From contig MEDY01000100.1 in NCBI GenBank assembly GCA_001724265.1, positions 1 through 64,000 on the forward strand: 64,000 nt of DNA. The letters are read 5' to 3'. This stretch comes from Rhizaria sp. SCN 62-66 (lineage: Eukaryota). The notes under the pieces are model-generated. The model was not told the origin of the DNA. It saw only the letters and a list, made by a program, of their open reading frames with translations, and made no database searches. This document shows positions 1,786 through 44,100 of the stretch, one piece after another. The position numbers were made by a program, and so were the translations under genes. Positions within the stretch are counted from its first letter, which is position 1. Each line of letters begins with the position of its first letter.

Positions 1786-4700
1786 ATGCCAACTGTCCTG
1801 TGGGTCTCTTCCCCGAACACATCATGCGCTCTATCCGCCCAGGTACGCTCAAGCTTGATCATAACAGACATTGTCTGTATTTACCGACGATGATAACTTA
1901 CATCATGTAATATCGCTCTATTTTTGGACTTGATAGCCTTTGATAGAGTCGTACGCGCGCGTCAACGGGTGGCGCATCGTCCCTGTGTCTTCACTCTCTT
2001 GCCCCAAAGCGCAACTCTTCCTGCACTCCGACCCGACTTCCCCGCTCACCATCGTCACGGAAATCTACGTTGAAACAGTACTGAACGCACTTGTGCGCGT
2101 GAACCGCGATATTTCCGTCGTGTTCTATCCTCCCTACGACGTCGACAAACGTTACGCGGCTGCCGCCTACCCGCCGCCCCCTGCGACTGCCACAGCCTCT
2201 GCCTCGGCCTTCTTCCCTGCTCTCGCTCCCACGCCGCCGCCGGGCTTGACTCCCGCCGCGGCCCGGCTGGCGCGGACGCCGCAGGAGTTGGTCCAGGCCG
2301 TCGCCACCGCGCTGCGCCTGCCGCTGCGCGCGCCGCCGCTCTCGGCCTTCCTCGGTTTCGGTCTCGACCTTGATTCCACGGCTGCGGCCGCTAGCTGTGC
2401 CGACGGAGACAGGAGCGTGCAGATGCGGGCGCAGGTTTGCGGCCCCGTTGCCCCGCGTTACCAGACGAGTGTACGCCTGCTGAACCCTCCTAGCGTTCGC
2501 GACTACAACTGCAACAACTGCAATAGCCCCAGTCACTGCCACTGCAACTGCGACAGCAGCGGCAACATTAGGATGAGTGCAGGTTGTGGCGCGTATTCCG
2601 CCGGTTATGCGGGCTTTGCCGGCACCGCCGCTAGCGATGCTGCCGATCATTACGCGATGGTTGAGGCCGAGCCTTACGCGGGTGCTGCTGCAGAGGCCGC
2701 GGACCTCGCGGCCGTGGCTGCTGCGACCTACGCCACCGCCGCGGCCGCGCGGGCCAGCGGGGCGAACGCTGCCGAGCACGGACACCTGCCTCTGCACCTC
2801 CACGCGCACAGCCAGAGCGGCCGCAGAGACTGCTGCACTGGTGGCGCCGCCATTGCGACTGAGTGCGCCTGTGTTGGCGTATGCGAGTGCTCTTTCCCTC
2901 GCATCAGCTGCAACAACAACAGCAACAACACCACTCACTCTTATAGTGTCGCGAACAGCGTCCTGCTGTCCCACAGCTCCACCGACGGCGCCAGCGGTAA
3001 CGGCGCCAACGGTGTCGTTATGGCCCGGAGCAGCCTCGCGCCGCTGCCGCACTACACGCACTGGAAGCGCGCGCGCGGCGACGCCGCCCCCGCGGACAGC
3101 TACTTCCTCGCCACGGGCGCGGCGGCGGCGCCCAGCGTGGCGGTCGCCGCCGACGCCGCTGCCAACGCCGTAGAGCTACGACGGCGCGCGGCCGGACTGA
3201 AGCCTGCGTACGACACTGCGCGACGCTGCTGCGCTGCCCACGGCCACTGCGCCACTGCCCACGGTCACTGTAAGGGCGCTCACAGTCGCATGGAGGTGAG
3301 CGCAGGCAAGGGCAGTGTGAGCGTGAGCTTGAGCAGGGGTGGGTGTGGTGCGCGGTGCTGCAAACAACACGGTAGCTCGTGCACGTGCCGTTGTACGTGT
3401 GCTCGTGTCGCGACGCTTGCCGTGCATAAGACAAACGACAACAACACCACAGATATCAGCGGCAGTATGAGCAGGAGCAGCAGAACAAGTAGCTCTACCA
3501 TGAGTGAGCTTCGCAGTGCCCCTGCTGAGAACGACGAAGCGAAAGCTACAGTGGAAGATGACATCCTGATTTCCCAGCATCACATCTGCAGTTCTGGCGT
3601 CACTCAGAACGATATCAGAGACGTCAGTGACGGCAATCCCAGCCATGCAGTTGCCGACAGAAGCGGTAGCTCGGAGAGTAACGTAAACGCAGGCAGCACG
3701 TTTGTTCCTCAAGAGGAGACCAAAGAGCCCCACGTTTCTAGCTCTCGCGACGATGCTTGCACCGCCAGTCCATCTTGCGCCGCCTCGGGCTCTCGCCCTG
3801 CCACAGACGCCATCGCGCTCGTGACCATGCGCGACGCCCGCGTGCTGGCCGCACAGAGCGCGCTCGCAGCCGCGCGCGGCGCCGCCACCGCGGCCAGCGC
3901 CGCGGTCAGCGCCGCGGCCGCGGAGGGCGAGAGCGCCAGCATGCGCGACCTGAGCGCGCGCGTCGCCGCGTTTACGCAGCGCGCGCAGGCTCTGCTCGCG
4001 CAATCAAGCGCTGGCGCAAGCTCTGCCAGCAGCACGAGCGTGAACGCGAGCGCTCCCTCTGTGTCGGGTTGCGCGACTGAATTGAGAAATGACACGACAG
4101 TCCTTCGCCGCAGTTATCAGAGTGTTGCGCGCGCCGAGCCGCCAGCAGTCGAGGTCTTCGACTCGCCGCTTTGCCCGCTGGCCCGCCTGCTGAACACCAG
4201 CACCCACACCGCGGTCCCGCTCGACAACCGGTCGTGGCGATCCGTCGACCACTACCTGCTGCACCTGACGCTGCTCGCAGCGGCGCTGCCGGGTCCCGCG
4301 CAGAGCATGCTCACGGTCCCCACGGTTGCTGTCGCGCACTTGGTCGCTTCACAGGCGCTCGCGAAGGCCAAGGACGCGCAGACCAACGCGGGCGCGCTCC
4401 CCGTGTTCACCCCGCACCTCACCACGAACGCGGACGTGGACGTGAACGCGAGCTAGAGTTTGGCCGCTGCCTCGACGGGCGCGACGGGACCGCTGCCCGG
4501 CGGCCGCGACGGCGCGGGCCCGCTGCGGCGCCCCGGAGTAGCCGTCGCGGCCGCGGACTGGGACTGCAACTCGCGCGCGCACTGGACCTCCCCGTCGCTG
4601 CGGCTGCAGATGCTGCGCGCCGTAAAGGCCAAGCTGGCAGCGTGCCCCGAGCTTAGGACCGCGTTGACGGCCACGGCGGGGCGCCAGCTCGTGTGGCGGG

Positions 4701-4786
4701 AGACGGCGCGGCACTGCCCGTTTGCGGTCAAGGCCAACGAGCAGCTGATGAAGATCCTCATGGGTATCCGCGACGGCAAGCTCTAA
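1786..4786 (+). CDS. Cys-rich, low-complexity protein with C-terminal NADAR/YbiA-like domain; contains an in-frame TAG at 4454-4456 (about 968 aa if read through)
   Basis: Exons 1786-1842 and 1937-4786, intron GTACGC...TTGATAG. NADAR-like motifs lie on both sides of the TAG: LDNRSWRSVDHYL before it; DWD...RLQMLRAVKAKLAACPELRTALTATAGRQLV...NEQLMKILMGIRD after it. GC-rich coding style persists to TAA 4784-4786. An extra upstream exon (ATG 1267-1313, spliced to 1776) is possible. Confidence 0.7.
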
Positions 4787-17996: not shown

Positions 17997-19834
17997 ATGT
18001 CCAACTCGCTGCGCAAGAAGGACAACCGGTCTCGCGTCTCAGGCGAGCACGCCCCCGCCCCGTCCTCGAAGCGCCGCGGCGCGTCCGACAACAAGGGTGG
18101 CAACGGCGGCGACGACGAGGAGGATGGCAACGAGCTCGAGGACGAAGCGGACCTCGAGTTTGAGGACCCCTTCGGCGATGAGTTCGAGGAGGAGATCATC
18201 GTGGACGGCGACAGCGAGGAGGCCCGCGCCGACGCCGCGCGCTACGAGCCCGGTGGCGAGGGCGCCCCGGCGTCGACGCAGCGCGTGTGGCGCGCGGGGC
18301 TCGACCCGATCGGCGAGGACGAGGTGCTGGACCACGACCCCACGGCGTACACGCTCTTCCACAAGCTCAAGGTCGAGTGGCCGTGTCTGTCGATCGACAT
18401 CCTGCGCGACTCGCTGGGCGCGTACCGCACCAAGCTGCCCGCGGCGCTGTACATGGTTGCCGGCTCCCAGGCCGACGACGCCGGCAAGAACAAGGTCTCG
18501 CTGCTCAAAATCACGAACCTGTGCCGCACGTCGCTGCCCGACGAGGACGAGGACGACGACGACGACGATGACGAGGACGGCGCCGCGGGCCAGGACCCTC
18601 TGGTCGAGGCGCGCGCCTTCAAGCACCCCGGCGGCGTGAACCGCATCCGCGCGATGCCGCAGCAGCCGTCGCTCGTGGCCACGTGGGCCGACACGGGCGC
18701 CGTGCACCTGTGGAACATGTCTGCGCACTCGGCCAGCATCGACGCGCCCACCGAGGTCTTCGAGGCCAACAACAAGCCCATGGCCTCGATGCTCTCCTTC
18801 GAGGGTCACGGCAGCGAGGGCTTCGCGCTCGACTGGTCGCACGTCGCCGCGGGCCGCCTCGCTTCGGGCTGCTGCGGCGGCAAAATCTTCCTCTACACTG
18901 TTGACCCCGCAGGCGCCGTCACCGTCGACGCCGCGCCCTTCAACGTCCACGAGGGCGCCTCGGTCGAGGACATCCAGTGGTCCGCCACCGAGGAGTTCAT
19001 CTTCGCCGCGGGCGCCACCGACGGCACGGTGCGCATTTTCGACTCGCGCGCATATGCCCGCGGGCGCCACATGCTGTCGGTCAAGTGCCACGACGCCGAC
19101 GTCAACGTCATCTCGTGGAACCGTAACGGCGACGGCAGCATGCTCGCGTCGGGCGGTGACGACGGCCGTCTGCGCGTGTGGGACCTGCGGTACTTCTCTC
19201 AGACCTCGGTGCCGGCCGACTTCAATTACCACAAGAAGGCCATCACCTCGGTCCAGTGGCACCCGCACGAGGAGTCGGTGCTTATCGCATCCTCCGAGGA
19301 CGACTCCGTGTCCGTCTGGGACCTCGCGCTCGAGGCTGATGCAGAGGAGGTCGCGCGCGAGGCCACGGGCGCGCAGATGGTCGACTACTCGATCCCGCCA
19401 CAGCTGCTTTTCGTGCACATGGGCCAGACCCACATCAAGGAGGCCCACTTCCACCCCCAGGTACGTCTCTATTCACGTCTCTATTTGATGTCTATCAGAG
19501 GATATCTACAAGAATGATACTTTGTCACAACGAAATGTATCCATTTTCACTTGCTGTCACTTCATTTGGTGTCAAAAACATTCCCGTATTGCCTGACAAG
19601 GATCCACATTATGATATTTTATTTCCCGTTCTCACATTATCTCCCTTTCCTATGATCTCCGCAAACGCGTTTTTTTTTGCTGCTGCTGCACAGGTGCCTT
19701 CGCTGATTCTGACGACCGCATCTGAGGGCATCGACATCTTCAAGCCGGCCAACATGGACGTGCTGCTGCCGCCCGCCGCCGACGGCGCGGGTGCCGACGG
19801 CGCGGCCGCCGCTGACGGTGTCGCCGTCGACTAA
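17997..19834 (+). CDS. GRWD1: Glutamate-rich WD40 protein / ribosome assembly protein Rrb1, about 534 aa
   Basis: Exons 17997-19460 and 19694-19834. LEFEDPFGDEFEEE, DPTAYTLFHKLKVEWPCLSIDI, HPGGVNRIR, EGFALDWS, SVEDIQWS, DVNVISWN, PPQLLFVHMGQTHIKEAHFHPQ|VPSLILTTASEGIDIFKP. Confidence 0.93.
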
Positions 19835-25315: not shown

Positions 25316-26088
25316 ATGCCCGGTGGTATTTCTTCCTCGGGCGTTGCGAGCTTACCCGAGCCCCGGCGCGAATCTTCCCCCTCACAACCGGAGAGCGCCC
25401 CCGTGCTTCACGGCTCGGCCACTGCCCCGGACCCGCTCGCCAGCCCGCCAGCCCCGCACTGCCCGCCGTCCCCGTCCTCTGCCTCGCTCTCGGCGGGTAC
25501 GCGCACCCCCAGCAGTGCGGGCACGCCGTCTCCCGCCCGCTCCCGCGCGCACTCCCCGACCCTAAACTCGTCAACTCAACGAGAAACCGCAGGCAATTCA
25601 CCCCAGGCCGCCCCGCGCGCGCTCACGGTTGACCCCGAGCCCGACGCCACCGTCGCCGCTGCGGTGCATTTTGGCCCCGCGCCGGCGTCGCCCACCACGC
25701 GCCGCCGCCTGCTGCTGCGGCAGCCGCCCAGCGTTACCGTGACCGCCGCCACCACCGCAGAGACGCAAAGTAACAACAGCAACGGCCTTGTCACTGCAGC
25801 TCCTCTGCCGCCCCCGTCTGTGCCCCCTGCCCCGTCTCTTCCCCCCGCAACCTCTGTTTCTGTCACTGGCGCCGGCTCTAGCGCTGGCCCCGTGACTGCG
25901 ACTGCCACTGCGACTGGGACGGAGACCGGGACTGCGAGCGCTGCCGCTACCGTGCCGCCGGCGCTCGCCGTCTCCTCCGCGGCCGCGCACGCGCTGGACT
26001 CGCTCACGGCGCTGCTGCGCGGGCAGGCGCAGTTCCTTCTTGTCGCGGGCCACGAGCTGGGCGTGGACGGCGCCGACGACCTCGAGAT

Positions 26089-26125
<37 letters not shown>

Positions 26126-29100
26126 GATGCGAGCAACACTCTCGTCGCCCGGAGCAAGGGCAGCAACTCGGTCGACGGCTACGAGGGCATCCGTCTTGCA
26201 GCCGGGCTGCCAGACGGCTTAACTTCCACCTCCAGCACCGTTGGCGACGCTGGCGGCCTGCATTCCACCTCTACAAGCCCTAACGCCGCCGCGGCCGCTG
26301 CCGCGGCCGCTGCCGCCGCGGCCGCTGCCGCCGCGGCCGCCGACGCCGCCGACGCCGAGGGCGCGGCCGCCGTGGCCGCCGAGCGCCGCCGCCGCCGTGC
26401 GCTGTTGCGGGCGGCGCGGCACACGCGCTGGGAGGTGCCGCTACCCATGGGCGCTGCGGCAGTGCTGGAATACGAGCAGCTGCACGGGTCGCTGCCGGAG
26501 CCGGGGACGGCCGAAAGCGACGCTCTCTTCCACATCACTTCCAACAACAACAGCGCCAACGTCAACGGCAATGGGAGCAGCACCGCGGGCAAGTTTCAGT
26601 CCGGCCTCGTCGGTGCGAGTTTGAGCGTGAGTCTCAGCCACGCTGGCAGCGGCGCTCACCGGCCCGGGCTGCGGCAGGGGCTGTCCGAGGTCGCGCTCGA
26701 CGCCGCCACGTTAGCCCGCGACGATACGTTCAATAACAACTTTAGCGCGAGTCCGAGCGCGAACGTCGGGGGCAACTTCACTAACGGCGGCTTCTTTTCG
26801 CTCGCGCGCAACAACGGGCTCGTGCCTTCTGACTCCGCCGCGAACGGCGGCAGCGCGCTGCTGAACAGCTCGAGCGTCGCGGACGGCGACAGCGGCTTTG
26901 TCGGCAGCAGCAGCGGCTGGGGCGGCGACGGCGAGCGCCTCAGCAGCCTCGACCCCGGCGCGTACAACTACACTGACACGGCTACAGACGACAACAACAA
27001 CAATAACAATACTAACAACGCCAACTCTTTGGGCCACACCGCACCGAATGCGCTTGTGTTGTCGTCGTCGAACTTGTCGAGTAACGCGAACAACAGCACC
27101 GCAAGCCTGGTTTCGACGCCGACCGCCGCGGCCGGACTGGGCCTGTCGCTGGCGTCGTCGTCGCGCCTCGGCGGGTCGCTGCTGGAGGCGCGCGAGGACG
27201 GCTCCCGCACGCACACGGTCACCAACAACGTCGTGCGCTGGCTTAAGGTGTGCATCAAGCCCGCCAAGTACGTCGGCCCCGACGAGCGCGCCGCCGCCAA
27301 GCGCAGGCAGGAGCAGGAACGGCTGCACGGCCAGTCGCAGTCGCGGCGCATCGTCATGGACACGCTTGGCATGGGCATCGCGGCTTCGGCGAAAACTAAC
27401 TACAACAGCAAATCAAACGCGTACGTCTTATAACCACTTCACAGAGCGATCTCCTCTGTAATGTTGCATTTTCACACAATTATATTATTTTAGTTTCCCA
27501 CTCATTTTTAACACCCTTTCATTCTTCGCCCCACACAGCGCTGACGACGTCGCTGCGGCGGACAAGGCCGCGGACGAGTTCATCGCCTCGCACCCGGTCT
27601 GGGACGGCGTGCGCACACGCCAGGACAAGATCGACCAGTACAAGCAGCGCTCCCTGCACTTTTTCGAGCCCGAACACCCGTTCCGGCGCGCGTGCATCAT
27701 GACGGTGCACAACAAGTGGTTCGACCGGCTAATCGCAGTCACCGTCTTCGTCTGCTTCTTGTTCCTCGCCTTCGCCTCGGCGCGGGAGTCCCGCACCATG
27801 GCTACGGAGAAGAACATCTTCTACTGGGCCGAGCTGTCCTTTTCCACGCTCTTCACGATCGAGTTCCTGCTCAAGATTGTCGCCATGGGCTTCATCAACG
27901 CCGGGCCCCGCAGCTACCTCCGCAGCGGGTATAACATCATCGACTTCTGCGTGCTCTGGGTGGGCTGGATGTCGCTATCGCCACAGATCCGCTGGACCGC
28001 CATCCGGTCTCTGCGTTTGCTGCGTATCATCAAAATCGTCAACGCCATCAAGGGCATCCGCATCCAGGTCACCGCGATCATCTCGTCCATCCCTTCGCTG
28101 CGGTCAGTCTTCATGTTTTCCATGTACATCATCGTGCTCTTCGCCGTCTTCTTCACGCGCTTCGCCATGGGCGAAATGCGCTACCGCTGCACCGACTCGT
28201 CCACGGCCACAGCGCCGCCGGAGGTCGTGCTTTCGGGCCCCATGTGCTCCACGGACCCGTTCTGGGGCCGCAAATGCTCCGTGGCCGACTACGGGCCCGA
28301 CGCGGGCTGCCGCGACATCGGTGCCAATCCGAACTGGGGCGTTACGTCCTTCGACAACGTCGGCGTTGCCGCACTTAACATGCTCATCTGCACCTCGATG
28401 GAAGGCTGGAGCGAGATTATGTACTTGTACGGCGAAGTGACGACGCGCTGGATGTACATCCCGTTCCTCATCTTCATGCTGCTGGCCGCCTACGTCGCGC
28501 TGCGCTTTATCTCAGCCGTGCTGGTGCTGCGCTACGAGCAGGGCAAGGCCGCCGCCGAGTCGATTGAGGCGCTGTTCAAGTGGAAGAAGACCCGCCAGCA
28601 GCGCATCACGGTCAACAAGGTCGGCGGCATCGACGGCCAGGTCGCCGACATCTCCGCGCCGCAGCCCTCCGCGGCTTTCAGCGAGCTGGACAGAACCGTG
28701 AGCGTGGCTCCTGTGGCGACATCCATGGGCGCTGTGCTGGCGCAGGTCTCGCCCCGCGCGCTCTCCGCGAACAGCGCGTGCGGCGGCGCGGGCAGCAGCG
28801 GCAACCTGCTCACGCACAGCTCGAGCGTTTTCGCCAGCTCCGGATCCGGCGCCACCGCCACCGCTAGCGCTAGCAATGGCTCTGCTGCTGGTGCTGCTGG
28901 CAAGGGGCATGATGTGCCTCTGTATCTCGCTGCTGCGGCTGAGGTCGAGGCCGCCGCCGCTGCTGCTGCCGCCGCCGTCGCGGTCACCGACAACTCGACT
29001 GCGAGTGCAGGCGTGGAGATGCCGGTGCCCGCTGACCTGCCGTTCGAGATCCCCGTCTCCGCTCCCGTGACCTTCGCGATGGCGCTGGCGTGGCAACAGG

Positions 29101-32100
29101 TCGGCGACAAGGCCTCGTCCTTTGTCCACTCGGACCTCACCGGCAGCGCTGCCAACGCCAACGCGGCCTCGGCTGAGGCTGCGACTGCCGGCGCGGGTGA
29201 CGCGGCGGGGAAGACGCGCTCTCGCTCGGGCACGAAGACCTCGGTGCCCCGGGCTCCCAGTGCTCCGAGCGCGGCTGCTGCTGGCGGCATCATTGCGAGT
29301 AAGTTCAACGAGGAGGAGGAAGAGGAGGATGCCGTGAGGCCCATGCCTAGCTTTGGCCGCACCGCCGCTGCCTCCACGGCCTCAGTCGCCCCCGTCACCG
29401 CGCCTACTCAGGGCGCTCAGAGCGCGCAGAGCGAGCATGCTCACGATCATATGGTGCTGCGCCTGAACACGGGGCTGACGATCAACAGCAACGTCGACGA
29501 CAGCGACGACGATGACGAGCACGCCCACGCCCGCCACATCGTCGACTCCAACGGCATTGCGGGGACGCTGACAGGCGACAACGACAACGGCGACGACTTC
29601 GGGCTCGCGTCCCCGAACCAGTTCACCGCGCCGCCCACCCAGCCCATGCCGCTCACGCCCTCGGTCTCGCTCACCGTCACAAACAGCCGCAACGCCGCCG
29701 CGGGCCCCGTCATCGGCGGCGGCGGCGGCCCGTACAAGTCCCCTGGGGTGGTCCCGCGGTCGCCGCGCTGCTCCCCGCTGGCGCTGGCGATGCCGCTGCC
29801 GGCGATCACGCCCACCGCGCGCCTCAGCATCGTCGGCACAGGCTCGCTCCTCGCGCCGCACGACCCCAACGCCAGCGGCCACGCCACCGCCGCCGCGGGC
29901 GACTCGGCGACAGACCCGCAGCAGCAGCAACAGGCGCAGACGCCATTGCAGCAGCAGATGCAGCGTCGCCGCGCGTCCTTCAACCGCTCCTCCGCCACGG
30001 GCGCCTCCCTGAGCCGCGGCTGGGACGTCGACACGCTCGACTCAGGCTACGGCGGACCCTCGGCCGACCCCCTCGCGGCCGCCGGATTTACGCAGCCACC
30101 CATGGACGCCGGCCTGCAGCCGCCGCAGCAGTACGGCCGGTCGCCGGTGGTCCCGGGCGCCGCCGGCAACACGCTCACGGTTCCCGGGCTGTTGCTGACC
30201 GCCGCGGGCGCCCCGGGCGGCAGCCGCGGCAACAGCCCCGGCGCCAGCCCCCGGGGCAGCGTCAGCCGCGGCATGCCCTTCTTCAGCCCCGGTGGCCGCG
30301 CCAACCCCGGGAGCAGCTCGGCCGCGACGCCGGTCGGCGTGATGGGCGACGACGCGGTCATCGCCCCCCGCAGCGCCAGCGCCAGTGTGGCGTCACCGCG
30401 CAAGGTGCCCGACCTGGCGCTACCGCCGCCGCCCGTGCCGGCCCCACCGCCCCCGGACGACGACGACGACGATGTCCACGACGGCGGCAGCAGGGGCCCG
30501 CTGGCGCCCCCGCACCCGCCGCCGCGCCCCGACGGCAGCGGCGCGAACGACGGCACGCCCGCGACCGCTGCCGCTGACGCAGAGGCGCTGGCCGAACTGA
30601 CGCGGCAGCGCGGCGCGTCCCGGCTCCGGTCCGACACCGTCTCCCTCGTGTCCCCCTCGAACGCCAACGCTGATATCGCTGACAACGTCGACTTCAATCG
30701 CCAGGCCAGCGGCAGCGTCTCGCGCAGCGGCGGTGTCGAGTCCGGCAACAGCTTCCGCGGCCAGCCCCGGCTGCGCGCGGCGACCCAGGCGCTGCCGCCG
30801 CAGCAGCAGCAGGCGCCGCCGTCGCCGGTGCCGAGCAACAGCGCACGGCTGCTGGGCGCGGGCGGTGCGGCGGGCAGCAGCAGCAGCGGGACACCTATGC
30901 AGCGCAGCAGGTTCTACTCGCAGACGCACTAGCCACAGGCGCTGTCACAGCAGGGGGAGCGGTCCAACACGCAGCAACAGCAGCAGCAGCAGCAGCGGAG
31001 ACTGCGGCACCGCGTGCCTAAGGCTACCGGTGTGTCTTCAACCGGCGATAACGGTGACACAAACAACAACGCGGGCGGCGCCAGCGACATGTTCACGTTC
31101 GGCTACGACCACGACGACGATCACGACGACAACAACGACGATGGTGACGACAACTACAACGGCGAAAACGCCGCGGCCGCCGGTGAGAAGGCCGGTCTGA
31201 GCAAGGACAAGGACAACTCACGGTCCTTTTGGGAGGCGCTGCGCATCGGCTGCGTGCGATGCTGCCAGCGCGGCGGCTCGGGCGGCTGCTTCGCGCGCTC
31301 GGACCCGCGGTATGACCCCGCGCTGGGCTACGCCGTGGACCAAAAGAAGGACAAGGCCGAGGACGAATACCACGGCTGCTACTCGAAGCGCGCTGTGTGT
31401 GTGCGCAACCCCTTCCGGCTGCGCGTGGGCCACGTCGTCCGGTCCATTGTGTTCCAGCTCGTGATTTACCTGATCGTGCTGTACAACACTGTGACCATCT
31501 CGGTGCAGTACTACGGCATGAGCACCAGCATGAGCGACTGGATCTACGCGTCCACGCTCTGCTGCACCGCGCTTTTTCTCGCCGAGGGCCTGCTCAAGCT
31601 CTACGGTCTGGGCCCCTACGAGTACTTCCGCTCCGGCTACAACCTCGCTGAGGCCGCGGTCACCATCGGCGCGCTCATTGAAGCTATTTTGACCGACGGC
31701 GTGTCCATCTCGGCGCTCCACGTGCTGCGGTTCATCCGCCTCTTCGAGGAGGACACGTTGCTGAAGGCCGCGAAGGACTACCGCGCCTGGCAGCTGCTGC
31801 GCAAGCAGGAGGCCGTGCAGCGCGCCTCGGACGCTGGCGACGCCGCCGCTTTGGCGGCCGCGACCGCGGCGCTGGCTGAGGAGGAGGAGGCCGCCGCCAA
31901 CGCCAACGGCGGCGGGGCGTCGTGGCAGCAGAGCAGCAAGTTCATTCGGACTAAGTACTTCATCCGTACCATCGTGTCCTCGGCTAAGGACACCTTCTAC
32001 TGCATCTGCATCCTGATCGCGTTCATCTTCTTCGCCGCCGTCATCGGCCGCTCGTTCTTGGAGGGCAAGATGGTCGACCTCGACGGATTCCCCGTGCGCA

Positions 32101-35100
32101 ACAACTTCAACTCGTTCTTCTGGTCCTGCGTCACCGTCTTCCAGGTCATGACGCCCGAGAACTGGAACACGGTGCTCTACGACGCCAAGCACGCCGTCGG
32201 CTGGCCGGGCGCGATCTTCATCCTCGGCATCTTCCTCCTCGGCTTCTACATCATGATGTCGCTGTTTCTGGCCGTGATGGTCGTCAACTTCGACGTGCAG
32301 ACCGAGGAGGGCGCACAGGTCGCCGACGAAGAGAAGGAACGCAAAGACCAGGAAGTGTGTGTCGTGCTCGCGGCCACGGTCACCGCGCTCAGCCACACGG
32401 AGCAGCTGCCCGTGCTCTACCACCGGTACACCACGGAGCGCGCCACGGCGCCCGCGCTCGCGGGCGGCGACTCGCGCCACATCACCGGGCTGCAGCAGCA
32501 GGTCGCGCGCCGCGTCGCCGCCTCGCACACGCACCGCGGCAGCGCCGCCGCGGCCGCTGCTGCGGCGGGGCACAGTGTGTACGGCGCCAACGCGGCCGCC
32601 GGCGGGAGTCAGTTCAGCACGATGAGTAGCAACGGCGCCGGCTCTGTCGGCGGACATAGGCGCCGCAACGGCAACACCACGCGGCAGAACACGGCCACCG
32701 GCAGCAAAAACTCGCCACCGCCGCCCCCGCCCCCGCAGCAGAGGCCCACGACCAGCCCCAACTCGAACAGCTCCGACTCTGGCTCCACTGCAGGCAGCGG
32801 GGGCAACGGCGGCGGGACTACCCCCGTGCCTCTGGCTCGTAGTCCGCTCGGCATGTCTTTCTTCACGCCTCCCTCTGCCCTCGCAGACGCCAACAGCAAC
32901 GGCGGCGACAGCGACCGCGCGGACGGCGACGACGACAACGTCGGGCCGATGCCGCGCTTCGGCGCCGGCGGTGGCGGTAGTGGTGGCGGCAACGGCCGTC
33001 CGCTGCCGCCGCCGCCGGCCCCGCCCGCGCCCCCCGGCCCGCCCGCTCTGCTGTCCACGGCGGTGAGCCGCGTCTCCGTGGACCACGGGAAGGCCTTTGC
33101 CGCCGCCACGGCCGCCGGCCCCGTCGCCACGATCGCGGCCTCCGTCTCGGACAGCGTCGCGGGGCTGGAAGCGAGCGCCAGCATGCCCGACAGCGGCGAC
33201 GGCGGCGGCGCCAGCTTCGCGTCACCGGCCGCGTCCCACGCCGCTCAAGCGCCCATCTACGACGAGTACTACCTCTCTGAGCACCTGGACGACCTCGCGG
33301 CCCTGCCGGAGCCGTACGTGCCCGCCGTGGTGCCTTCGGCCGTCGCGGCCACGGCCTCGGTGACGCGGCTGCCGTACACGCACCTGGCCTTCCACAATCA
33401 TGAGCACCGACTCACGCGCGCCGAGAGCGTCTTCGGCCGCTGCTGCTCGCGCCTCGCCAAGACGCGCTCGCGCGGCCAGACGGGCCACAAGCAGGGCAGC
33501 GGCACTGTCACGGCCTCGGCGCGCGCGGAAAGCAAGACCGGTGCCCCGGCCGCTGGCGGCAACAGCAGCGCCGCCGCCGCGGTGGTCGGCGCGGGCGGCA
33601 CCGGGAGCGACGTGTCCATGTCTGGCGGCATCGGCGACGGGCCCTTCACGCTCATCGACGGCGACGTCGCCGCCGGCGTGCGCAAGCACGCCTGGGAGGT
33701 CGGCCGCCGCTGGCGTAGGCTTGTGTCGGCGGCACTCAGCTCCACGCGCGCCGTGCTGCGCGGCTACGGGAGCAGTGACGCGCAGATCGAAGAAGAACTG
33801 GAAAACACAGCGACCGAGGACATCGTGAAGCAACACAACGTCAATGTGTACAACGGCGTGGTGTCATACCGCGACCTCAAGTACCCGCCCGGATCCTTCA
33901 GCAAGCTCACCAACTTTGTCGTCGACCTCAAGGTCTACGACAAGTCGCGCGCCAAGCTCTTCGGCATGGACCTTACCTCGGAGCTGCGGCTGCTGTGCAT
34001 CGCATGCGCCAACTCGGCCCTCACGCGCACCGACTTCGAGTCGCTCTTCGGCCGCCGCTTCCTGGCGCGCGAGCACGCCGTCATCGCGCGCAGGCTGCTC
34101 GCGATGCGGTCCGCCGCGGCGCAGGCGGCCAACGCGGCGCCTGGCGAGCGCGAGTTTGCGCTACTATGCCGCGTCAACCCGTGGGAGCTGGTGACTGAGA
34201 TCTCGGGCGTGTTCGGCGAAAACGAAGAGGAGGAGTACATCGACGACTACGAGGCTTCGTCGCTGCACGGCTTCCCCGGCTACCCGTACTTCCCCGAAGA
34301 CGAGGGCTGGCTGCGCGAGGAGGTCGTCGAGAGGGCCACAGGCATCCCCTTCCGCGACCGGCCGCTGGTCCAGCTGCCGTACATGCTCGGCGCGCAGGAC
34401 CGCGCCGCCCCTGACAGCGGCAGCACCGCTGGCACGGGCGCTGGCACCGGATCGAGCGTCTACAGCGGCGGCAGCTCTGTGGGCTCGAGCACGGGCGCGC
34501 CGCCCGAGCTGGAGCACCGCCGCTCGCTCATCGGCGGATCAAACAGCGCGACAGTGAATAGCCTTGTGCGCCCCAGCTTCGGCCGGCCGTCGTCGTTGCT
34601 GATGCAGCCGCGCTCCTCCCTGCTCGCCCTAAAGGAGCAGCAGCAGGGCAATGGTGGCATCGCGCCGGCCCTGTTGGCTCAGGCGCAGGCGCAGGGCAAT
34701 GGCAAGATGCCCGAGCTGCTGAGCGCGTCGCAAACCCAGTCCGCGGCGTCCTTCGGCGCCACTCCCGCGTTCGGCCGCCAGACCTCGCCGCCGCCGCTGT
34801 TGGCCTCGCTGTCCGGCAGCAGCACCGGCAGCGGCGGCCCGCCCCCGCTGCGCCGCCAGAGCACGCACGCGCGCCTCATGTCCTCTGATATGATGTTTGA
34901 CGGCGAGATGCTCGGCGACAGCGGCAGCGGCCCGGGCTACGGGCTCTACGGCAGCAGCAGCAGTCTGGCCGGCGCGGGCGCGAGCAGCCCCACGATGAGC
35001 CGCGGCGGGAGCAGTCGCCGTCTCTTGGCGGTCAACGAGAGCTCCAGCGCCGGCATGGGGCTGCACGTCACCAGTAGCTCGGTCGGCTCGGCTCTCACCT

Positions 35101-38100
35101 CGAGCAGCACCAACATCACGAGCGCAGGCGATCAACAACAGCAACAGCAGCAGGACAACAGCCATGTGGCCGAGGCCGTCAGCGCCGCCGTCGCCGCCAC
35201 CGAGGCCATAAACTCTCAGAACGTCACCCTCGCGCAGCTGTCAATGTCGCAGCCGTTCTACTCCACCTCCGGCTTCAACTTCAACCTCAGCCACACCAAC
35301 GCGTCGATGACGCTGCCCGGCTACGCCGCGGCCTCCGGCATCGCGGCCGCGGTGCACGCGCGCTGGTACCTCCGCGACCTGGACGACTTCAAGTCGGGCC
35401 GCGACGTGCTGATCCTCAATGGCCGCCTTGTCACGCCGCCCGCACCGCCTACGCTCTTCCCCGGCCAGACGCTCAACAGCAACCCCGACAGCGTCAGTGA
35501 CTCCGCCGCCGCCGCTGCTGCGGCTGGGTCGCCCAGCAGCGCGGCGACCGCGGGCACAGTGCTTAACGCAGCCGTCTCGCACGCCATCGCGTTCGCGGCG
35601 GCCACGCACCCACGCGACCTCATCACGCCCTTCTACTACACGGCCTACATCCGCGGCACGCGCCGCCTCGAGCGCCTCCGCTGCGCGCTGGCGCAGGCGC
35701 GCGCGGACGCATTCCCGTCCCCCGCCGTCACCGCGGCGTCGGCGGCGCTCAAGGCTGACGTCATTGCTTATCTGCGCGGCAAGGCCGGGCTGAGCACGCT
35801 CAAGCGCCACGGCGTCAACGTCAACCGCCTGCGCTGGGCCGTGCACGAGCGGCGCTCCTTCTCGCCCCTGGGTGCGCTGCTGCACACGGCCGACTTCCTG
35901 GTCGGCGACGAGAGCTCCGTACTCGCTTTCAACTCGCCGCTGCAGGACCGCCAGATGTTCTCCTCGACGTACTCGCACTACAACATGCGGCTCACCTCGC
36001 GCATCGTGGACCCGCTCAACCGCTTGCTGCGCCCCGTGTGGGACGTCTCGGCGCGCCCGCCACGCAGCACGGTCGACCACGCGTCGCCGTACGCCGCGCT
36101 GGCGGCCCGCGCGAAGCTGCGCGCCGTGCTCAGCGCGCCGCACAACGAGGCCGTCACCGTCGCGTGGCAGGTCCCCGGCCTGCAGACCGCACTGCACGGC
36201 GGCGCGCCGCATGCGGGCGGCAGCGCGGGCGGCAGCGCCGGTGTGGGCTCGAGCGCGTACAACAGTATGAGCAGCGGCGCGCTCACTGCAAGCGGGGCTG
36301 CAAGCCCGCATGCTACGACGGGCAGCCACAGCACCTTGATGCGCCGCGGCGGCAGTGCGTACAACGTTAACACGTACAACGGCAGCAACGGCGGCACGTT
36401 CAACGGCAACACGTACAACGGCGGCACGTCTAAGTTCAGCACCAAGCTGACTGGCTACGTCAACAACCTCATTTCCGACTCGTCCGCGTCCTCGCTGTCG
36501 GCCGACTTTACCTCCGACGCCGCGTCCGAGGCTGAACGCATCCTCTGGGGCATCCCGTCGAACCCCGCCGCGTTTGCCGCCGCCACGGCCGCCGCGCGCG
36601 CCGCGGCCTACGGAGCGCCCCCGACCCGCAGCAGCGACTACTCGAGCAGCAGCGCCAGCGATACGTCGATGACCTCGGCGGGCCCTGCCTTCGCCCTGGG
36701 CGCTCCCGTGTCTGCGCTGCTGGCGCCCCCGCGTGTGCCGGTGTTGCCCGCGCGGTTTGGCATCCAGTACGCGATTCCGGTTCCGCCGCGGCGGCCCGTG
36801 GACAAGAAGATGCTCAAGCGTATTGAACGCCGCGAGACCCGCGAGAAGGACGCGCTCGAGGCCCTGTTCACGACGGTCAACGCGGTGCGGTCCGCGCTGG
36901 GCGAGGACGAGCTCGTTCGCGACTTGATCGGACTGGAGGCGATGGAGGCAGCGGAGCATCTGCACGAGGCTGAGACCGCCGCTGCACGCGCTGCCGCCGC
37001 CCCAACCGCGGCTGCCGAGGTCAGCAAGACGGCTGTGGCGGCGGCGACCGCCGGCCCGAGAGTGCCGGCGACGCCGACGGGCGGCAGGAAGCTCATGTTC
37101 TCACTCGACGCGCTGCCGAGAGTGCTGCCGGACGACAGTGCCGCCGCACAGGCCGAGGCCGAGGCCAACGCCGCATACGCCGCCGCGGCCGCCGAGGCCG
37201 CCGCGGTGTCTGCCGCGGCGCCGCTGCCTCTGCAGGGCTCTGGCTCGCTGACGCAGCAGCAGTCGACGCGCCAGGCCTCGCAGACCTCGGGCACGCCCAG
37301 TTTGCCGCGCCGCGCCAGCACCGTCACCGGCCCCGGCGCCTCCGCGGCCGCCACCGCCGCCGCCGCCGACGCGGCCGCCGCGGCGCCGTCTACGACGACG
37401 GTCCTGCACCCGGATGACGAGCGTCTGCTCATGGACCGCGAGCCCTACTGCGTGTGCTGCGAAGCCTCGCTGCCGCCCGCGGTCCGCGACTGCGTCGTGC
37501 GTCTGCGTTACCGCGACTACAACTTCGGCTTCATCTCGCGCTCGCATCCCTCGCGCCGCTACGCGCTCCAGCTCGTGCTTCACCCCGCTTTTGAACTCAC
37601 CTTCATGGTGCTCATTTTCTTCTCGTGCGTCGTGCTCGCGCTCGACCACCCCGATGTCCACGCGCAGTCGCGCCTGGGCCGGTTCGTGTCTATATCCAAC
37701 TGGTTCATCACCATCGTCTTCGCGCTGGAAATCCTGCTCAAGATCTGGGCCCACGGCCTTATCCTCAACATCAACGCCTACCTGCAGGACGGCTGGAACG
37801 TCTTCGACTTTATTGCCGTCGTCGTCTCCACCATTTCCTTCTTTGTCCGCTCCACGCGATTCGCCATGGGTCTTCGCTCGCTCCGCGGGCTTCGTGCGCT
37901 GCGCTTTGTGTCATACTTTGAGTCGACGCGCGAGGTCGCGTCCGGCATCGGCAAGGCCTTTGTGGCGTGCATCCCCATCTTCCTCTTCGGGCTGCTGCTC
38001 TTTGTGCTCTACGGCTCGCTGGGTGTCGCCTTCTTCAAGGGCAAGCTGCGCCGCTGCTACGACCCCTTCTCGGCGACGCCGTTGGAGGAGCTGCCGTTCG

Positions 38101-41100
38101 ATGAGATCTCGTGTTTGGCGCAGAACTTCATCTGGCGCAACCCCTTCGCGTTCGGCAACTTCGACTCGCTGGGCGCGGCCTTCCTCGTGCTCTTCGAGTT
38201 CTGCACCATGGAGGGCTGGCCCGGCTACATGTACCTGCTCGCCGACGCCACGCCTGTGGGCATGCAGCCCAAGGTCAACTATAACCCGTACAATGCCCTC
38301 TACGTCGTCTTCGCGATCATTCTCTTCGGGTTTTTCTACCTTAACCTGTTCATCGGTACCATCGTCGACTCGTTCGACTCGTCCGTCGCAACCGACCTCA
38401 ACGAACTCCAGGTCGCCTGGCTGCAGACGTACCGCCTCATCCTCGACCACCGCCCCGTGACGCGGCTGCTGGAGCCCCGCACGGGCCCCATTGACGACGC
38501 CGACTCGTCCTCATCCTCGTCCTCCTCGAGCGACTCCTCGGACAACGAGGCCGAGGACGACGGCAAGGGCGGCAAGCGCGGCGGCAAGTCCGCCAAGAGC
38601 GGCGCCGCTATCACGCTCGACGCCAACGGCGACGCGGTCATTACGCGCGCTGCCGCGTCGGCCAAGACCTCGGTCGCGCGCTGGCAACGCTCGCACGCCG
38701 CCGTGCGCATGCGCCGCGCCGAGCGCGAGAGCTTTGCGGAGCTCAAGCGGCTGCGCATCCACCGCCGCGCCGTCGCGCACGTGGCGCGCTCGGCGGGGCT
38801 TCACCTCGAGCAGTACCAAGGCCAGAGCCAGTCTGCCGCTGCCACTGCCGCTGCGGCGGCATCGACCGAGGCGAACAACCTGAAGGACGCCGTGTCGGCT
38901 GCTGTGAACCACTCCAGCGCGAATAACACATCTGCTGCACCTGGCGCTGGCGCTGGCGCTGGCGCTGGCGCTGGCAGTGCGAGGCCCAAGGTCCCCGCGC
39001 CGCCGGCCTACTTCGACGCCTTCAACTTGCACTCGGCGCACCCGTACCTGCCCAACACCAACTACATCTTCGACGAAGAGGCGCTGCAGCGTGACATCGC
39101 GCTCCCGGCGCCCGCGGACTCGCGCGGCGTGCTACGTCTGCTTGCCGTCGCGCCAGTCGTGACGCAGGAGACGCGCATGCTCACCGAGCTCCTCAAGCTC
39201 GGACAGGCGCAGGTACGGATACTAGTTTTGATTCACATCGATATAATTGAAAAGCATATGTTTCTGAATAACTCCTCTCACATTTCGTAACTTTCCTATG
39301 TTGACTCCTTTGTTTCTCCTTTGTATCTCAGGGCTCGGGCCCCGCGTCCGCCCGCCTCCGCGAGCTGCGCCGGCTGCACCGCGTGGCGCAGGCCAACTCG
39401 GCGGCGCTGGCTGCGCAGCTGGCGCAGGCCCGTGAGCGCGTGACGAGCATCGCCGACGCGGCGGGCTCGGGCGAGGCCATCACCGTCGACACGTCCGTCT
39501 ACGGCGTTACCGAGACGGAGCTGCCGTGGTGGCGCCGCGCGCTGGCGACCGTGTGCTGCTGCTGCTTCGACAGCGGGGAGAAGAAGGTCATCGCACTTGA
39601 TGAGTACGGCAACGAGAGAACGCCCAACGGCAGCTCGGCCGGCGCGGGCGGGCTCGGTGCGATGTTCGGCCTCGCCAGGGGCCACCAGTCCGGCGCCGGC
39701 GGCGACGCCAACGCGGACGGCAATGACTCAAGCGCCAGCACGAGCAGCCGGTCGAAGCGCGTGAGCCGCGCAGTGTGGGCCGTGGTGCGCACCGCGCGCC
39801 ACAGCCTGTTCCAGCTCGTCTCGCTATCTGGCTTCAACGACTTCATGCTCGGCGTGCTCTGCTTCAACATCATCGTCATGATTATGCAGTACGCCGGCAT
39901 GGGTCACACGTACGCGCGCGTGCTCGAGATCGCCCACGACTGCTGCTCCATCGCGTTCATGACCGAGTGCGTGTTCAAGATTCTCGGCATCGGCTTCCAC
40001 CAATACTTCCGCAACCGCTGGTTCCAGGTACGTTTAACACTTAAGTAGCACACATTTACTTGCGATATTCCTTTCTATCTCTACATGTATCAATGGTTAT
40101 TCAAGTTTCTTCTTGCACTCATTCCACTTTGTTTTCTTTCTTTATATCTCAATAGGTTGAAGCGCTGATTGCGGTCGCGTGCGGCATCGACTTCGTGTGC
40201 ACGTCGATGGGCGTGTACAACTTCTCCCAGGTTGGAGTCGACCCGCAGATCTTTACGTCAATCCGCCTGTTGCGCGCCATCTACATTGCGCGTCGTGTGT
40301 CTTCTTTCCGCCAAATCTCCAACACGATCATGTTCTCGTTCCGCGCGCTTAAGAACGTCGGTTTCATCTTCCTCATCGTCATGTTCGTCTACTCGGTCAT
40401 GGGCATGAACCTCTTTGCGCACGTCAAGAAGTTCGACCGCCTCGACTCGCGCGCCAACTTTGACAACTTCATCAACGCCTTTTTGGTATTGTTCCGCGCC
40501 GTCACAGGCGAGGACTGGAACCCAATCATGCGCGAGCTGGCCATCCCGCCGCCCTTCTGCGACCCCACCGCTGGCGACTGCGGCTCCGCACCCCAGGCCT
40601 ACGTGTTCTTTGTCACGTTCCAGCTTATCCTCGCCTTCCTGCTGCTTAACATGGTAATCGCCGTCATCTTCAAGCAGTTCGAGCAGGAGATGGTGCTCTT
40701 CAAGGCGCGTCAGCAACTCGCCTCGAGCGACTCGGCGGGCGCGCTCGTCTCGGCGGGTCAGCACTCGCGCGGCGCCGGCACGCGCGGGCTCTGCAACAAG
40801 CTGCGCGTGTACATCTACCGCACACTCTTGCCGGGCGGCTTTCTCTTCTTCCTGCTCTCACCCGCGCAGTGGCACCGCTGGGTCTGCTGCAAGCCCTGCT
40901 ACAGCAAGACGCACGCGCGCGCCGCGCGCGAGTACGCTCGCCGCAAGTTCGCCGCCACCGCCGCCGCCAACAACGGCAACGGCAACGGTAACGGCGGCAA
41001 CGGCGTGGGTAGAAGCGCGAGTAGAACGGACCGCGTCCTCACTGCTGGCGCTGACACCGCCCCCGCGTTTGTCAACAGCGCGAGCCCCAGCAGCGCCAAC

Positions 41101-44100
41101 AGCGCCGGCGAGATCGAGATGAGCGTCATCAGCCCCGCCACGGCCAACTTCGCCCGAGCGGCCTCGAACACGATTAACGGCAATACCGCGGGCAACACCG
41201 CCGGCACTGCGACAGCGAGCAGTGACGCTGCGCCCTCATCCTCGTCGCCCCCCGCGAGCGCGGCGCCCGCGACCAACGCGAGCGCCCATAGCCCCACCAA
41301 CGGCAACGGCAACGGCAACGGGGCCAGCGCGACGATGTCCGCGTCGGCGTGCGTGCGCGCGGCGACCGAGACGCTGCTGTTGGCGGCGCAGTCGACGCTG
41401 CCGCCGCTGCTGGCGCACGAGTCCATCACGAGCCGCGCCATCGACGCCGAGCTGCGCACCTACGAAAAGCGCCTCCGCAAGACGCTCGTCAAGTTTGCGT
41501 GGGGCGTGCTCGAGGGCTCGTTCGCGGGCCGGGGTTTCGACGCCAACGGCGCGCTCGTGCTCATCGATGCCGCCGCCACGCTCAACCCAGGTCAAAACGC
41601 CACCGTTGCTGTGTCCTCGGCTTCCTCCGCAATCACAGTGAACGCCCCCGCGGCGGCCGCGAAGATCGCCGGCGCGGTAACCCTGGCCCCCGCGCACTCG
41701 CCGACGATGCCCGCGCTGGCGGCCGCCGCGGCGTCGGCGTCGCCGTTCCCGGCGTACGTCAAGGTCGCCGCGCTGCAGCCCGCCGTGCTCACGGCGACTG
41801 TGCGCCGCCGCCTCACCGCCGCCGCCGCGCTTGCCGCACGCGCGCGCGCGCACCGGCCGTTCCGTGCGGCCGTGCGCCGCAACCTTTTTTACTCGAACGC
41901 GGCCGGCACGCGCACGCTCGCTGACGCGCTCGAAGTGACTGCGGCGGACCCCGCGCTCGCTGGACTTGGCCAAAAGGCTGTTGAAGCAGAGCTTGCGTCG
42001 CTCAAACGCTCGTTTGAGTTCGAGTCCGACCTCAACGCCGCGTTCAACGAGGCGCTCGTCGAGGCTGTGATCGCGTCCAACACCAACGCCTCCGAGAGCA
42101 ACGCCGCTGGCAACAGCAACTCGGTCGGCAGCAAGATGGCCGTGCAGAACGCGGTCGCCGTGGCCGCCAGCGACGTCGCCGCGGCCTCGGCGGCCCAGGT
42201 GCTCGTCGCGCTTAAGGCCGAGGGCGAGGGCGACGTCGTCTCCGTGTTCCCTGTCCCGCTGCGCATCCCTCTCGCATCACACACCGCCGCCGCTGCTACC
42301 GCGGCCGCCTCTGCGGGCGCCAACGCTGCGGCTGCGGCAGTCGCGACTGAGGCAGTAGCCGCCGGTGCCGCCGCAGTCGCCGCTGGCTCCGCGTTCACTG
42401 TCACCTCTGCTGCTCCTGCGGCCGGCAGCGGCGGCCTGTACGGCGACGTGCCGCCCCCGCCCGCTGTGTACGACCGCAGCACCGGCGCGCCCGTGGGCGG
42501 CGTCGCGGTCGTGCCCGCGCCCGCGCCCCAGCAGAGCGCGCCCGGCCAACCCGCGGGACTCGCGACCCGCCCCGGCCAGGCCGCCGCCGCCGCCGGCGTG
42601 CTGGCGCCCCCCGAGGTGCAGCGCTCGCAGTCGGTGATCCCGCTCAACCCGGGCTACAACGTCTCCGACTCGGAGTCCGAGTACGACGGCTTCTCGCGCC
42701 AGAACACGCTCTCGCTTGACAAGCAGGACTCAGTCGAGTCGAACCCCAACAGCAACGGCCGGGGCCCGCTGCCACCCCCGCCCTTGCCTTTGTCTCACTC
42801 GAGCGACGCTGCCAACGTGGTCGCCGCTGCCGCCGCTGAGGCCGAGGCCGACGCCCGCGCTCGCGCCATCGCCGCCGCGACCGCGGCCGCGGACATGACC
42901 GACAGCTTCGAGCCCCTGCCGCTGCCTCCCGGCCTGACTCTGTTCTCCGGCTTCGCCTGCGACACCTCTCAGGTCACGTGCACGCTCATCGCCTCCGCGG
43001 CCCACGTCGCTCTGCTGTCCAACACCGCCAACGGCGCGGTTGGAACCTCGTCCACTGCGATCGGCGCCGCCCTGTCGTCGACGCCCCTCTCGACCTCGCC
43101 CAGCAACGGGTCGCTGCCCAGCAACGCGAGCACGAGCGAGGCGACCACCCCGAGTGCGAGCGCCACCGCCCACGCGATGCCCGCGCTGGGCGAGTTCGAC
43201 GAAGAGACTGACGCGTCGCTCTCGTTCGGCGCTTCGGCCGAGCAGGCCCACGCGCTGCGTTTGGCCCGCGGCCTGAGCTCCCTCACGCGCCGCACCGCGC
43301 TCAACGTGGCGACGCACAAGCCGTCCTCGGCCGCGGACCTGGAGCTGCACCGCATCACGGCCAACGCCGCGGCCGCGACCTCGGGCGTGTCCACGGGCAA
43401 GGTACTCCCGATCCTCGCCAGCCACATGCTGCAGTTCAACCAGCAGTGGACGCATCTCAGCTACGCAGGGCTCCCGGACACCTCGCACCTGGCCTCGGAC
43501 GCCGCGCGCCGCGCCGCCCGCGTCGGTAACGCGCTGTCGCCGCGCCACTTCTACGACCCCGAGCTGCCCGCCGTGCCGCTGCTGCGCGTCTCGCACCTGC
43601 CCGTGCTGCTTGCGCGCCTGCCGCCGCCGCTGCGGCCCGTGCTGCGCCCGCCCGTGCTGCGCGCGCTGTCGGAGCACGTGCGCCGCAAGGTCTTCGTCGA
43701 CTTCGACACGCACACGCTGGGCCCCGCGCGCAGGCGCATGGCGCGCCAGCAGCGTCGCGCCTACGCGCTGCACGCGCGCCTCACGCGCGCGCATAGGCTG
43801 CTAGTCAAGCGCGCCAGGTGCAACAACAAGTCCTACGACGACGAGGATGCTGACGGTGCCATCACGGACGACGAGGACGACGCCTTCATCGCCCTTGCCC
43901 ACGCGATCTACGCCCCTGCCGACGCCAAGAACAGCGCACCCGGCTCCAGCGCGCGCGTGCCGGTGCCTCATTCCCTGTCGTCCCTGTCGACCCCCGACCT
44001 CACTGCCGCGTACACCGCGCTGCTGTCGGCCTACATAGCCCTGGAGCGCTCCCGCCGCGGCCACGCGCGCGCCTACACGGCGGCGCTGGCGACCCGCGAC

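Follow-up and report, generated by a model that had tools for sequence, protein, structure and literature searches.

An in-frame TAG in a giant Cav-like channel gene of a metagenomic Rhizaria contig, a second one in another gene, and the probable use of UAG as a sense codon

The stretch of DNA analyzed here, referred to as the window, comprises 64,000 nucleotides (nt), positions 1 to 64,000 of the forward strand of contig MEDY01000100.1 (assembly GCA_001724265.1, Rhizaria sp. SCN 62-66), a contig of a bioreactor/wastewater metagenome. Its plus strand carries, at 25316-46230, a very long gene for an ion channel resembling the Cav family, and the reading frame of this gene contains a TAG codon at 30930-30932, in the linker between channel domains I and II. 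A second in-frame TAG lies at 4454-4456 (+), in a different gene. In this report, we describe both sites and weigh the possible explanations for them, the simplest single account of the two being that UAG is translated.

The channel gene is organized as four exons, which three introns join in the correct phase. Exon 1 (25316-27420, +), recognized from its sequence and from the phase of the GC content at third codon positions (GC3), begins at ATG 25316, encodes a low-complexity N-terminus and ends two nucleotides into a codon. It is followed by intron 1 (27421-27538; 118 nt, GC 0.38, GTACGT..CACAG), whose splicing is judged from frame and signals (the split codon and the GTACGT donor at 27421 fit an acceptor at 27538/27539), and then by exon 2 (27539-39212; 11,674 nt), which holds domains I, II and III as well as the in-frame TAG. 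Intron 2 (39213-39331; 119 nt, GC 0.34, GTACGG..TCTCAG) is in phase 0 on both sides. The 232 codons of exon 3 (39332-40027) contain the first part of domain IV, a domain that is split by intron 3 (40028-40155; 128 nt, GC 0.32, GTACGT..CAATAG). Exon 4 (40156-46230) supplies the rest of domain IV and a long low-complexity tail that ends at TAA 46228-46230. From ATG 25316 to TAA 46228, the coding sequence amounts to 20,547 nt, or 6,849 codons. A product terminated at TAG 30930 would have 1,832 residues and contain domain I only.

Pfam Ion_trans repeats, each with six transmembrane segments, were found in all three open reading frame (ORF) pieces and follow one another in the order I to IV; they belong to a single chain only if the TAG is decoded. 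Domain I (27711-28550; residues 84-363 of the ORF that starts at 27462) was found by Pfam and aligns to domain I of Cav1.2. Domain II (31431-32345) was located by HMMER alignment to domain II of Cav1.2 (query residues 1298-1602), and domain III (37563-38459) by Pfam and by the Cav1.2 alignment (query residues 3342-3640). The ORF at 40156-46230 matches Ion_trans with an E value of 1.1e-25. This match covers the profile only from position 71 onward, and the first 70 positions have to be supplied from upstream, by exon 3. The best match among solved structures is human Cav1.2 (8fd7_K; E 7.2e-88), to whose domains I, II and III those of the window correspond one by one. All four pore loops contribute a glutamate to an apparent EEEE filter: TSMEGW in domain I and TPENW in domain II align to Cav1.2 pore loops, and CTMEGW in domain III and TGEDW in domain IV were assigned by eye. 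Segments rich in arginine and lysine, typical of S4, were read in the translations of domain I (IRSLRLLRIIKIV), domain II (LHVLRFIRLF), domain III (LRSLRGLRALRF) and domain IV (IRLLRAIYIARRV).

Judged by its sequence, the gene is predicted to encode a four-domain Cav-like channel with an EEEE pore and hugely expanded low-complexity linkers, which measure approximately 940 residues between domains I and II and approximately 1,700 between II and III. It shares with Cav alpha-1 channels the four Ion_trans repeats, the pore-loop glutamate in each repeat and the Arg/Lys-rich S4. Cav alpha-1 channels, however, have approximately 1,600-2,500 residues in place of 6,849, and the giant linkers and the TAG are peculiar to the channel described here. 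The 766 database relatives reach 35-38% identity to it at best. When domain I was searched against a collection of metagenome contigs, 41 stretches matched and six were confirmed, all at 28-31% identity and none of use for the linker. Huge inserts of low complexity, rich in Ala, Ser, Gly and Gln, are a feature of this protein and also of the protein encoded at 5176-17271 (-), a Utp10/HEATR1 homologue of 4,031 codons in one exon.

The preliminary description of this DNA, made from the letters of the window, had reported a TAG within the Gln-rich I-II linker. We read the same string at the site, TCG CAG ACG CAC TAG CCA CAG GCG CTG TCA CAG CAG ... CAG CAA (CAG)6, and the coordinates and the single stop symbol in the frame were likewise reproduced; the immediate codon context is CAC TAG CCA. 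At this codon, one stop-to-stop ORF, 27462..30932 (1156 amino acids), gives way to another in the same frame, 30933..39290 (2785 amino acids), and the translation of 27462-39290 has no stop before its end other than TAG 30930. The frame used by exon 2 thus contains one stop in 3,891 codons, in contrast to 50 and 59 stops in the other two frames. As had been described, an ORF of 2758 amino acids starts 27 codons beyond the TAG, at GTG 31014, which is the first ATG, GTG or TTG in frame; the first in-frame ATG is 52 codons beyond, at 31089. Channel sequence flanks the TAG on both sides, with Ion_trans matches at E 9.8e-38 in the upstream ORF and at E 1.8e-77, in three stretches, in the downstream ORF.

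Coding character also continues across the site. Exons in the window have a GC content of 0.6-0.8 and a GC3 near 0.9, and introns and spacers have 0.3-0.5. The phase of the GC3 signal is constant over 27540-39212, TAG included. Immediately around the TAG, GC is 0.75 before and 0.65 after, and GC3 is 0.92 before and 0.76 over the 150 nt after. At eight of nine tested ORF ends, by comparison, the downstream DNA has a GC of 0.28-0.50 and a GC3 of 0.29-0.51. Beyond TAG 30930 there are 2,785 codons free of stops, then two phased introns and domain IV. No homologue of the channel linker was found. A protein search with the 300 residues around the TAG scored none of 7,999 candidates, because low-complexity words swamped it, and in a search for a paralogous copy of the neighborhood, the site matched only itself.

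Assembled contigs from other sequencing runs establish that the codon is real and not an assembly error. A run search listed 16 runs, of which 14 contained part of the stretch, and four of these (X2, X3, X4 and X5) were compared with the window; these are assembled contigs, in which a second allele can stay hidden. None of the four lists a differing letter at position 30930. In X4, a poly(A) RNA library of 2025 from another study, a 578-nt contig spans 30455-31032 without a gap; its one differing letter lies outside the listed places and is not among the two T>C changes of this run. In X5, a 401-nt contig spans 30755-31155 with zero differences. Both contigs carry T. The compared runs differ from the window at 11 places altogether, so X4 and X5, which have differences elsewhere, are not the same assembly, and because contigs of the later study bridge the T, TAG 30930 has been stable over ten years and two studies. 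No contig piece listed for X2 or X3 bridges 30930. These two runs, although attributed to different studies and years, have near-identical tables and the same eight listed contig pieces, and probably represent one data set deposited twice. The table of joints from the run comparison consists mostly of low-complexity artefacts.

To find comparable codons, all six frames of the window were scanned for stops flanked on either side by 80 or more open codons and by a coding-like GC3. Eleven stops were flagged, nine of them antisense to long ORFs. The other two lie in sense frames, and both are TAG: the codon at 30930 and the one at 4454-4456 (+; AGC TAG AGT), which belongs to a gene at approximately 1937-4786. 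Beyond TAG 4454, 109 codons are open, at GC 0.80 and GC3 0.90, up to TAA 4784-4786, after which AT-rich DNA begins immediately. The codon interrupts a conserved, weakly NADAR-like C-terminal domain (4130..4786, +). An exhaustive HMMER search with the 218 residues around it, against 1.84 billion representatives, gave six matches. Two are the halves of the window's own gene, held as separate proteins in the protein library, and the other four are relatives, at 57, 36, 42 and 32% identity; two of these matched as one stretch over the position of the TAG and two as two stretches. In the alignment, all four relatives have both halves of the domain in a single chain. Thirteen columns on the N-terminal side of the TAG and 19 on the C-terminal side are invariant, and the conserved residues after the TAG are all kept in the window. 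None of the four relatives has the insert in which the TAG lies, so the residue encoded by the TAG cannot be read from them. Pfam and PDB sequence searches with the domain around this TAG gave no significant match. Three of the four relatives have NADAR matches below threshold (E 0.018-0.2, 12-16 bits against a cut-off of 35.1), which provide a lead only; one of these weak matches covers both halves of the domain.

The codons that do end genes were located by the drop in GC rather than by the ends of orthologues, which yielded a small sample of nine inferred terminators, at 4784, 5178(-), 19832, 23510, 46228, 47555(-), 51561, 52966(-) and 57504(-). Within the window, six of the nine are TAA, three are TGA and none is TAG. 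TAA is the chief terminator despite a GC3 of approximately 0.9. The base that follows is G at eight of the nine, which suggests strong selection on termination context; at the in-frame TAGs, the next base is C (30930) or A (4454). Among 15,555 sense-frame codons, two are TAG and none is TAA or TGA.

We consider it probable that UAG is a sense codon throughout this genome, with UAA and UGA as stops, because a second in-frame TAG lies inside the conserved domain of another gene and because none of the nine terminators is TAG. In this small sample, two genes of the window, for the channel and for the NADAR-like-domain protein, contain an in-frame TAG followed by a conserved downstream part. That UAG is decoded in some manner, readthrough included, is likely. 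If UAG is read as an amino acid, the channel gene would give one polypeptide of 6,849 residues. Decoding would presumably be carried out by a dedicated tRNA with the anticodon CUA, and the inserted residue may be Gln. UAG decoding could be recent, or less efficient than that of ordinary codons, as the frequency of TAG is only about one-twentieth of that expected for a neutral synonym.

Several observations weigh against genome-wide sense UAG. Only two TAG codons bear on it. The runs confirm the T at 30930, and TAG 4454 is known from the window contig alone. Both codons lie in poorly conserved, low-complexity stretches, so that no conserved column gives the inserted residue. No tRNA was found in the 64-kb window, and there was no Rfam match. 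The rarity of TAG is itself difficult: as a neutral synonym of CAG it is expected approximately 43 times, a figure calculated from the TTG/CTG ratio of 0.096 and the 448 CAG codons, against two seen. Under the standard code, the lack of TAG among nine terminators is only mildly unlikely, with a probability of roughly 0.08-0.13 if TAG makes up 20-25% of stops, by our own estimate. In a genome so rich in CAG, a nonsense mutation is most likely to turn CAG into TAG, so the finding of TAG both times says little alone. The ninth tested ORF end (G_end, with a GC of 0.60 after it) differs from the other eight and proved to belong to a wrong-strand ORF, the real gene being on the plus strand with its TAA at 51561. 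Finally, a contig of X4 (27356-27704) retains intron 1 at a depth similar to that of exons, which points to DNA carry-over or poor splicing. The colinear contig of this run over the TAG therefore does not reveal the mature mRNA and tells little about splicing or editing. Introns 2 and 3 fall in bins where X4 has little or no cover, which proves nothing.

A rather doubtful alternative is that the standard code applies and that termination is incomplete at both sites, through site-specific or general leakiness, such that the channel gene yields a 1,832-residue product and a smaller amount of the 6,849-residue channel. The preliminary description had offered leaky readthrough at UAG-C, with a one-domain and a four-domain product, as a second possibility. 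In eukaryotes, a C 3' of the stop codon weakens termination, and it is a C that follows the channel TAG, in contrast to the G at eight of nine real stops. The extreme rarity of TAG is what might be expected of a codon that is tolerated rather than free, and both TAGs lie in linkers where any inserted residue should be tolerable. As in programmed readthrough in eukaryotes and their viruses, the channel UAG is followed by C, and an open frame runs on into functional sequence. The two sites nevertheless share no context (CAC TAG CCA CAG at one and AGC TAG AGT TTG at the other). The motif CARYYA, placed 3' of the stop, stimulates readthrough, and the corresponding context in tobacco mosaic virus is UAG-CAA-UUA; neither CCA CAG GCG nor AGT TTG GCC fits this motif. 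The 120 nt 3' of each TAG fold no better than shuffled sequences, with z -0.10 at one site, where 88 of 200 shuffles did as well, and z -1.09 at the other, where 30 of 200 did, compared with z -0.78 and -0.17 for controls (200 shuffles each). Sequence context and downstream structure thus give leaky readthrough no support. Moreover, the second site is unrelated to the first and lies within the same 64 kb, two sites among approximately 12 genes being a very high rate for programmed readthrough, and the TAG-truncated product of the second gene would be without half of a conserved domain.

It is also unlikely that the TAGs are true premature stops, that is, nonsense alleles or young pseudogenes, possibly on one haplotype of a diploid, which leave a one-domain fragment or nothing useful. 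CAG to TAG is the most accessible change, since the sense-frame codons include 448 CAG and 101 TGG compared with 16 CGA and 52 CAA; TAG is rare, and a second allele can be masked in assembled contigs. However, the source of 2015 and two runs of the other study, of 2025, share the same T, and the strain in these later runs differs elsewhere. There are zero further stops or frameshifts over 2,785 + 232 + 2,024 downstream codons, the GC3 signal is intact, and five of the seven strain differences 3' of TAG 30930 are synonymous, a small sample to which a single contig contributes three of the five, close to its end. Conserved residues beyond TAG 4454 are all kept, and two such alleles would be unusually many for approximately 12 genes. 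The persistence of the T across studies, the intact downstream frame of approximately 5,000 codons and the conservation after the second TAG make nonsense alleles unlikely.

It is very improbable that the TAG is spliced out of the RNA with an unconventional GC-rich intron or altered there through U-to-C editing. Compared with its closest homologue, the second gene carries an insertion, the end of which coincides with TAG 4454, and a GTGTTC..TAG span there, of approximately 54 nt as read by eye, would keep the frame. Known introns in this genome are of another kind. Eight were recognized: the AT-rich islands of the window yielded seven, and intron 3 of the channel gene is the eighth. All start with GTA (GTACGT in four, GTACGG in two, GTACTG in one and GTAAGT in one), their GC is 0.32-0.41, and the four that were measured exactly are 118-233 nt long. 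One of them, in the GRWD1 gene, is confirmed by homology, as the spliced product ...HFHPQ|VPSLILTTASEGIDIFKPAN agrees with the consensus of its relatives. None of the 392 in-frame GT/GC..AG spans over the channel TAG has a GTA donor or a GC below 0.63, and none of the 290 over TAG 4454 has a GTA donor or a GC below 0.62. The lowest GC of any 40 nt within 200 nt of TAG 30930 is 0.475, in agreement with the preliminary description, which had seen no AT-rich gap, consensus donor or pyrimidine tract at the site. It had also noted that the nearest GT..TAG span shifts the frame; this span begins at GT 30911 and measures 22 nt, and the nearest GT..AG spans, of 22 and 28 nt, are both out of frame. TAG 30930 cannot be removed by an intron of the kind seen in this genome. 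The gapless X4 contig with its T is a weak argument here, given that X4 also keeps intron 1.

That the TAG separates two genes, a one-domain channel and a three-domain gene starting at GTG 31014 or ATG 31089, is barely credible: an ATG is indeed present 52 codons past the TAG, but no spacer lies at the site, where GC is 0.65-0.75 and the codon phase stays the same, whereas spacers elsewhere in the window run to hundreds of bases of AT-rich DNA (GC 0.28-0.50), and domains I to IV stand in order with domains I to IV of Cav1.2.

The other genes of the window give some indication of its origin. In a single-gene tree of GRWD1 with 33 rows, the window and its environmental relatives stand beside three rhizarians, with a moderate support of 83/91. 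The rows were picked by hand from 120 listed matches, so this sequence-based grouping with Rhizaria is weak. The best named GRWD1 matches reach at most approximately 49% identity, and an atlas query gave a vague pointer to fungi. Contigs from prokaryote genomes were scanned with the GRWD1 alignment for misbinned relatives; 27 stretches matched, and the one confirmed was on an ordinary bacterial contig, an off-frame chance match that was rejected. The GRWD1 gene has an AT-rich intron of 233 nt near its 3' end (19461-19693). The library protein for GRWD1 (527 amino acids) runs into this intron, and its C-terminus is therefore mis-called. An ORF of 552 codons at 49905-51563 (+) contains near-identical repeat units, in which the motif ...AAGTGCACCGTGAACCAGATCAAC... 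recurs 543 nt apart, and it has no Pfam match. The opposite strand is open for 572 codons, in a codon phase at odds with the GC3 signal.

Concerning the amino acid, the preliminary description had equated UAG with Gln. Its proposal of UAG as a translated internal codon gained support from the second TAG at 4454, from the failure of any intron to fit and from the nine terminators, none of them TAG, whereas the identity of the residue as Gln did not. Gln is the favored guess only, on priors: one transition turns CAG into TAG, the neighboring sequence is rich in Gln, and Gln has more precedents than any other residue. The main alternative is Leu, which is possible and is kept in play by the position of the window near rhizarians in the GRWD1 tree and by a rhizarian precedent for UAG as Leu.

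Nuclear codes in which UAG alone among these codons has acquired sense are already known. According to PMC5304391, UAG encodes Gln in Iotanema spirale and Leu in the rhizarian exLh, the latter being the one known UAG reassignment in Rhizaria. Others, as cited in PMC11687900, are Scotinosphaera (Ser), some phyllopharyngean ciliates (Leu, Gln) and Protocruzia (Gln), and codes that give UAG and UAA different meanings are known from only a handful of lineages (PMC5304391, PMC11687900). As in these UAG-only codes, in-frame UAG occurs here in more than one gene, in this case two, and UAA and UGA continue to serve as terminators. The resemblance to exLh extends to the predominance of UAA, with 56 UAA and 15 UGA in exLh (PMC5304391) compared with six TAA and three TGA here. 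By contrast, 384 UAG are counted in 71 genes of exLh, and the window has two in 15,555 codons. The exLh authors argued from its rarity in ribosomal protein genes that UAG is apparently translated less efficiently. The genome considered here differs further from these UAG-only codes in that it is strongly GC-rich (GC3 approximately 0.9). When the literature was searched for stop-codon reassignment in a eukaryote of wastewater, nothing relevant stood among the papers listed, and further searches brought up the known cases only. The window thus adds a further case, resting on two codons, to a kind of code that is already known.

Tentatively, the source may be a rhizarian protist at an early stage of UAG capture, or one held at low decoding efficiency. 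UAG would have been lost from the ends of genes, the remaining stops would have been reinforced by a following G, and UAG would have returned only in linkers of giant proteins that are under no constraint. The channel gene of such a cell could also give both one-domain and four-domain products.

One consequence concerns annotation. Gene callers cut genes of the source organism at TAG, as the two halves of the second gene, held as separate library proteins, illustrate, and predicted proteomes from such metagenomes are fragmented as a result. At 6,849 residues, the Cav-like protein would be among the longest of its kind and, if made whole, it would show how much disordered insertion a four-domain scaffold tolerates. 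If UAG is indeed a sense codon in this organism, it would represent an independent origin of split meaning for UAG and UAA, in a strongly GC-rich, free-living wastewater eukaryote without a close sequenced relative, and its very low UAG usage together with its G-reinforced terminators would offer a rare view of an intermediate in stop-codon capture.

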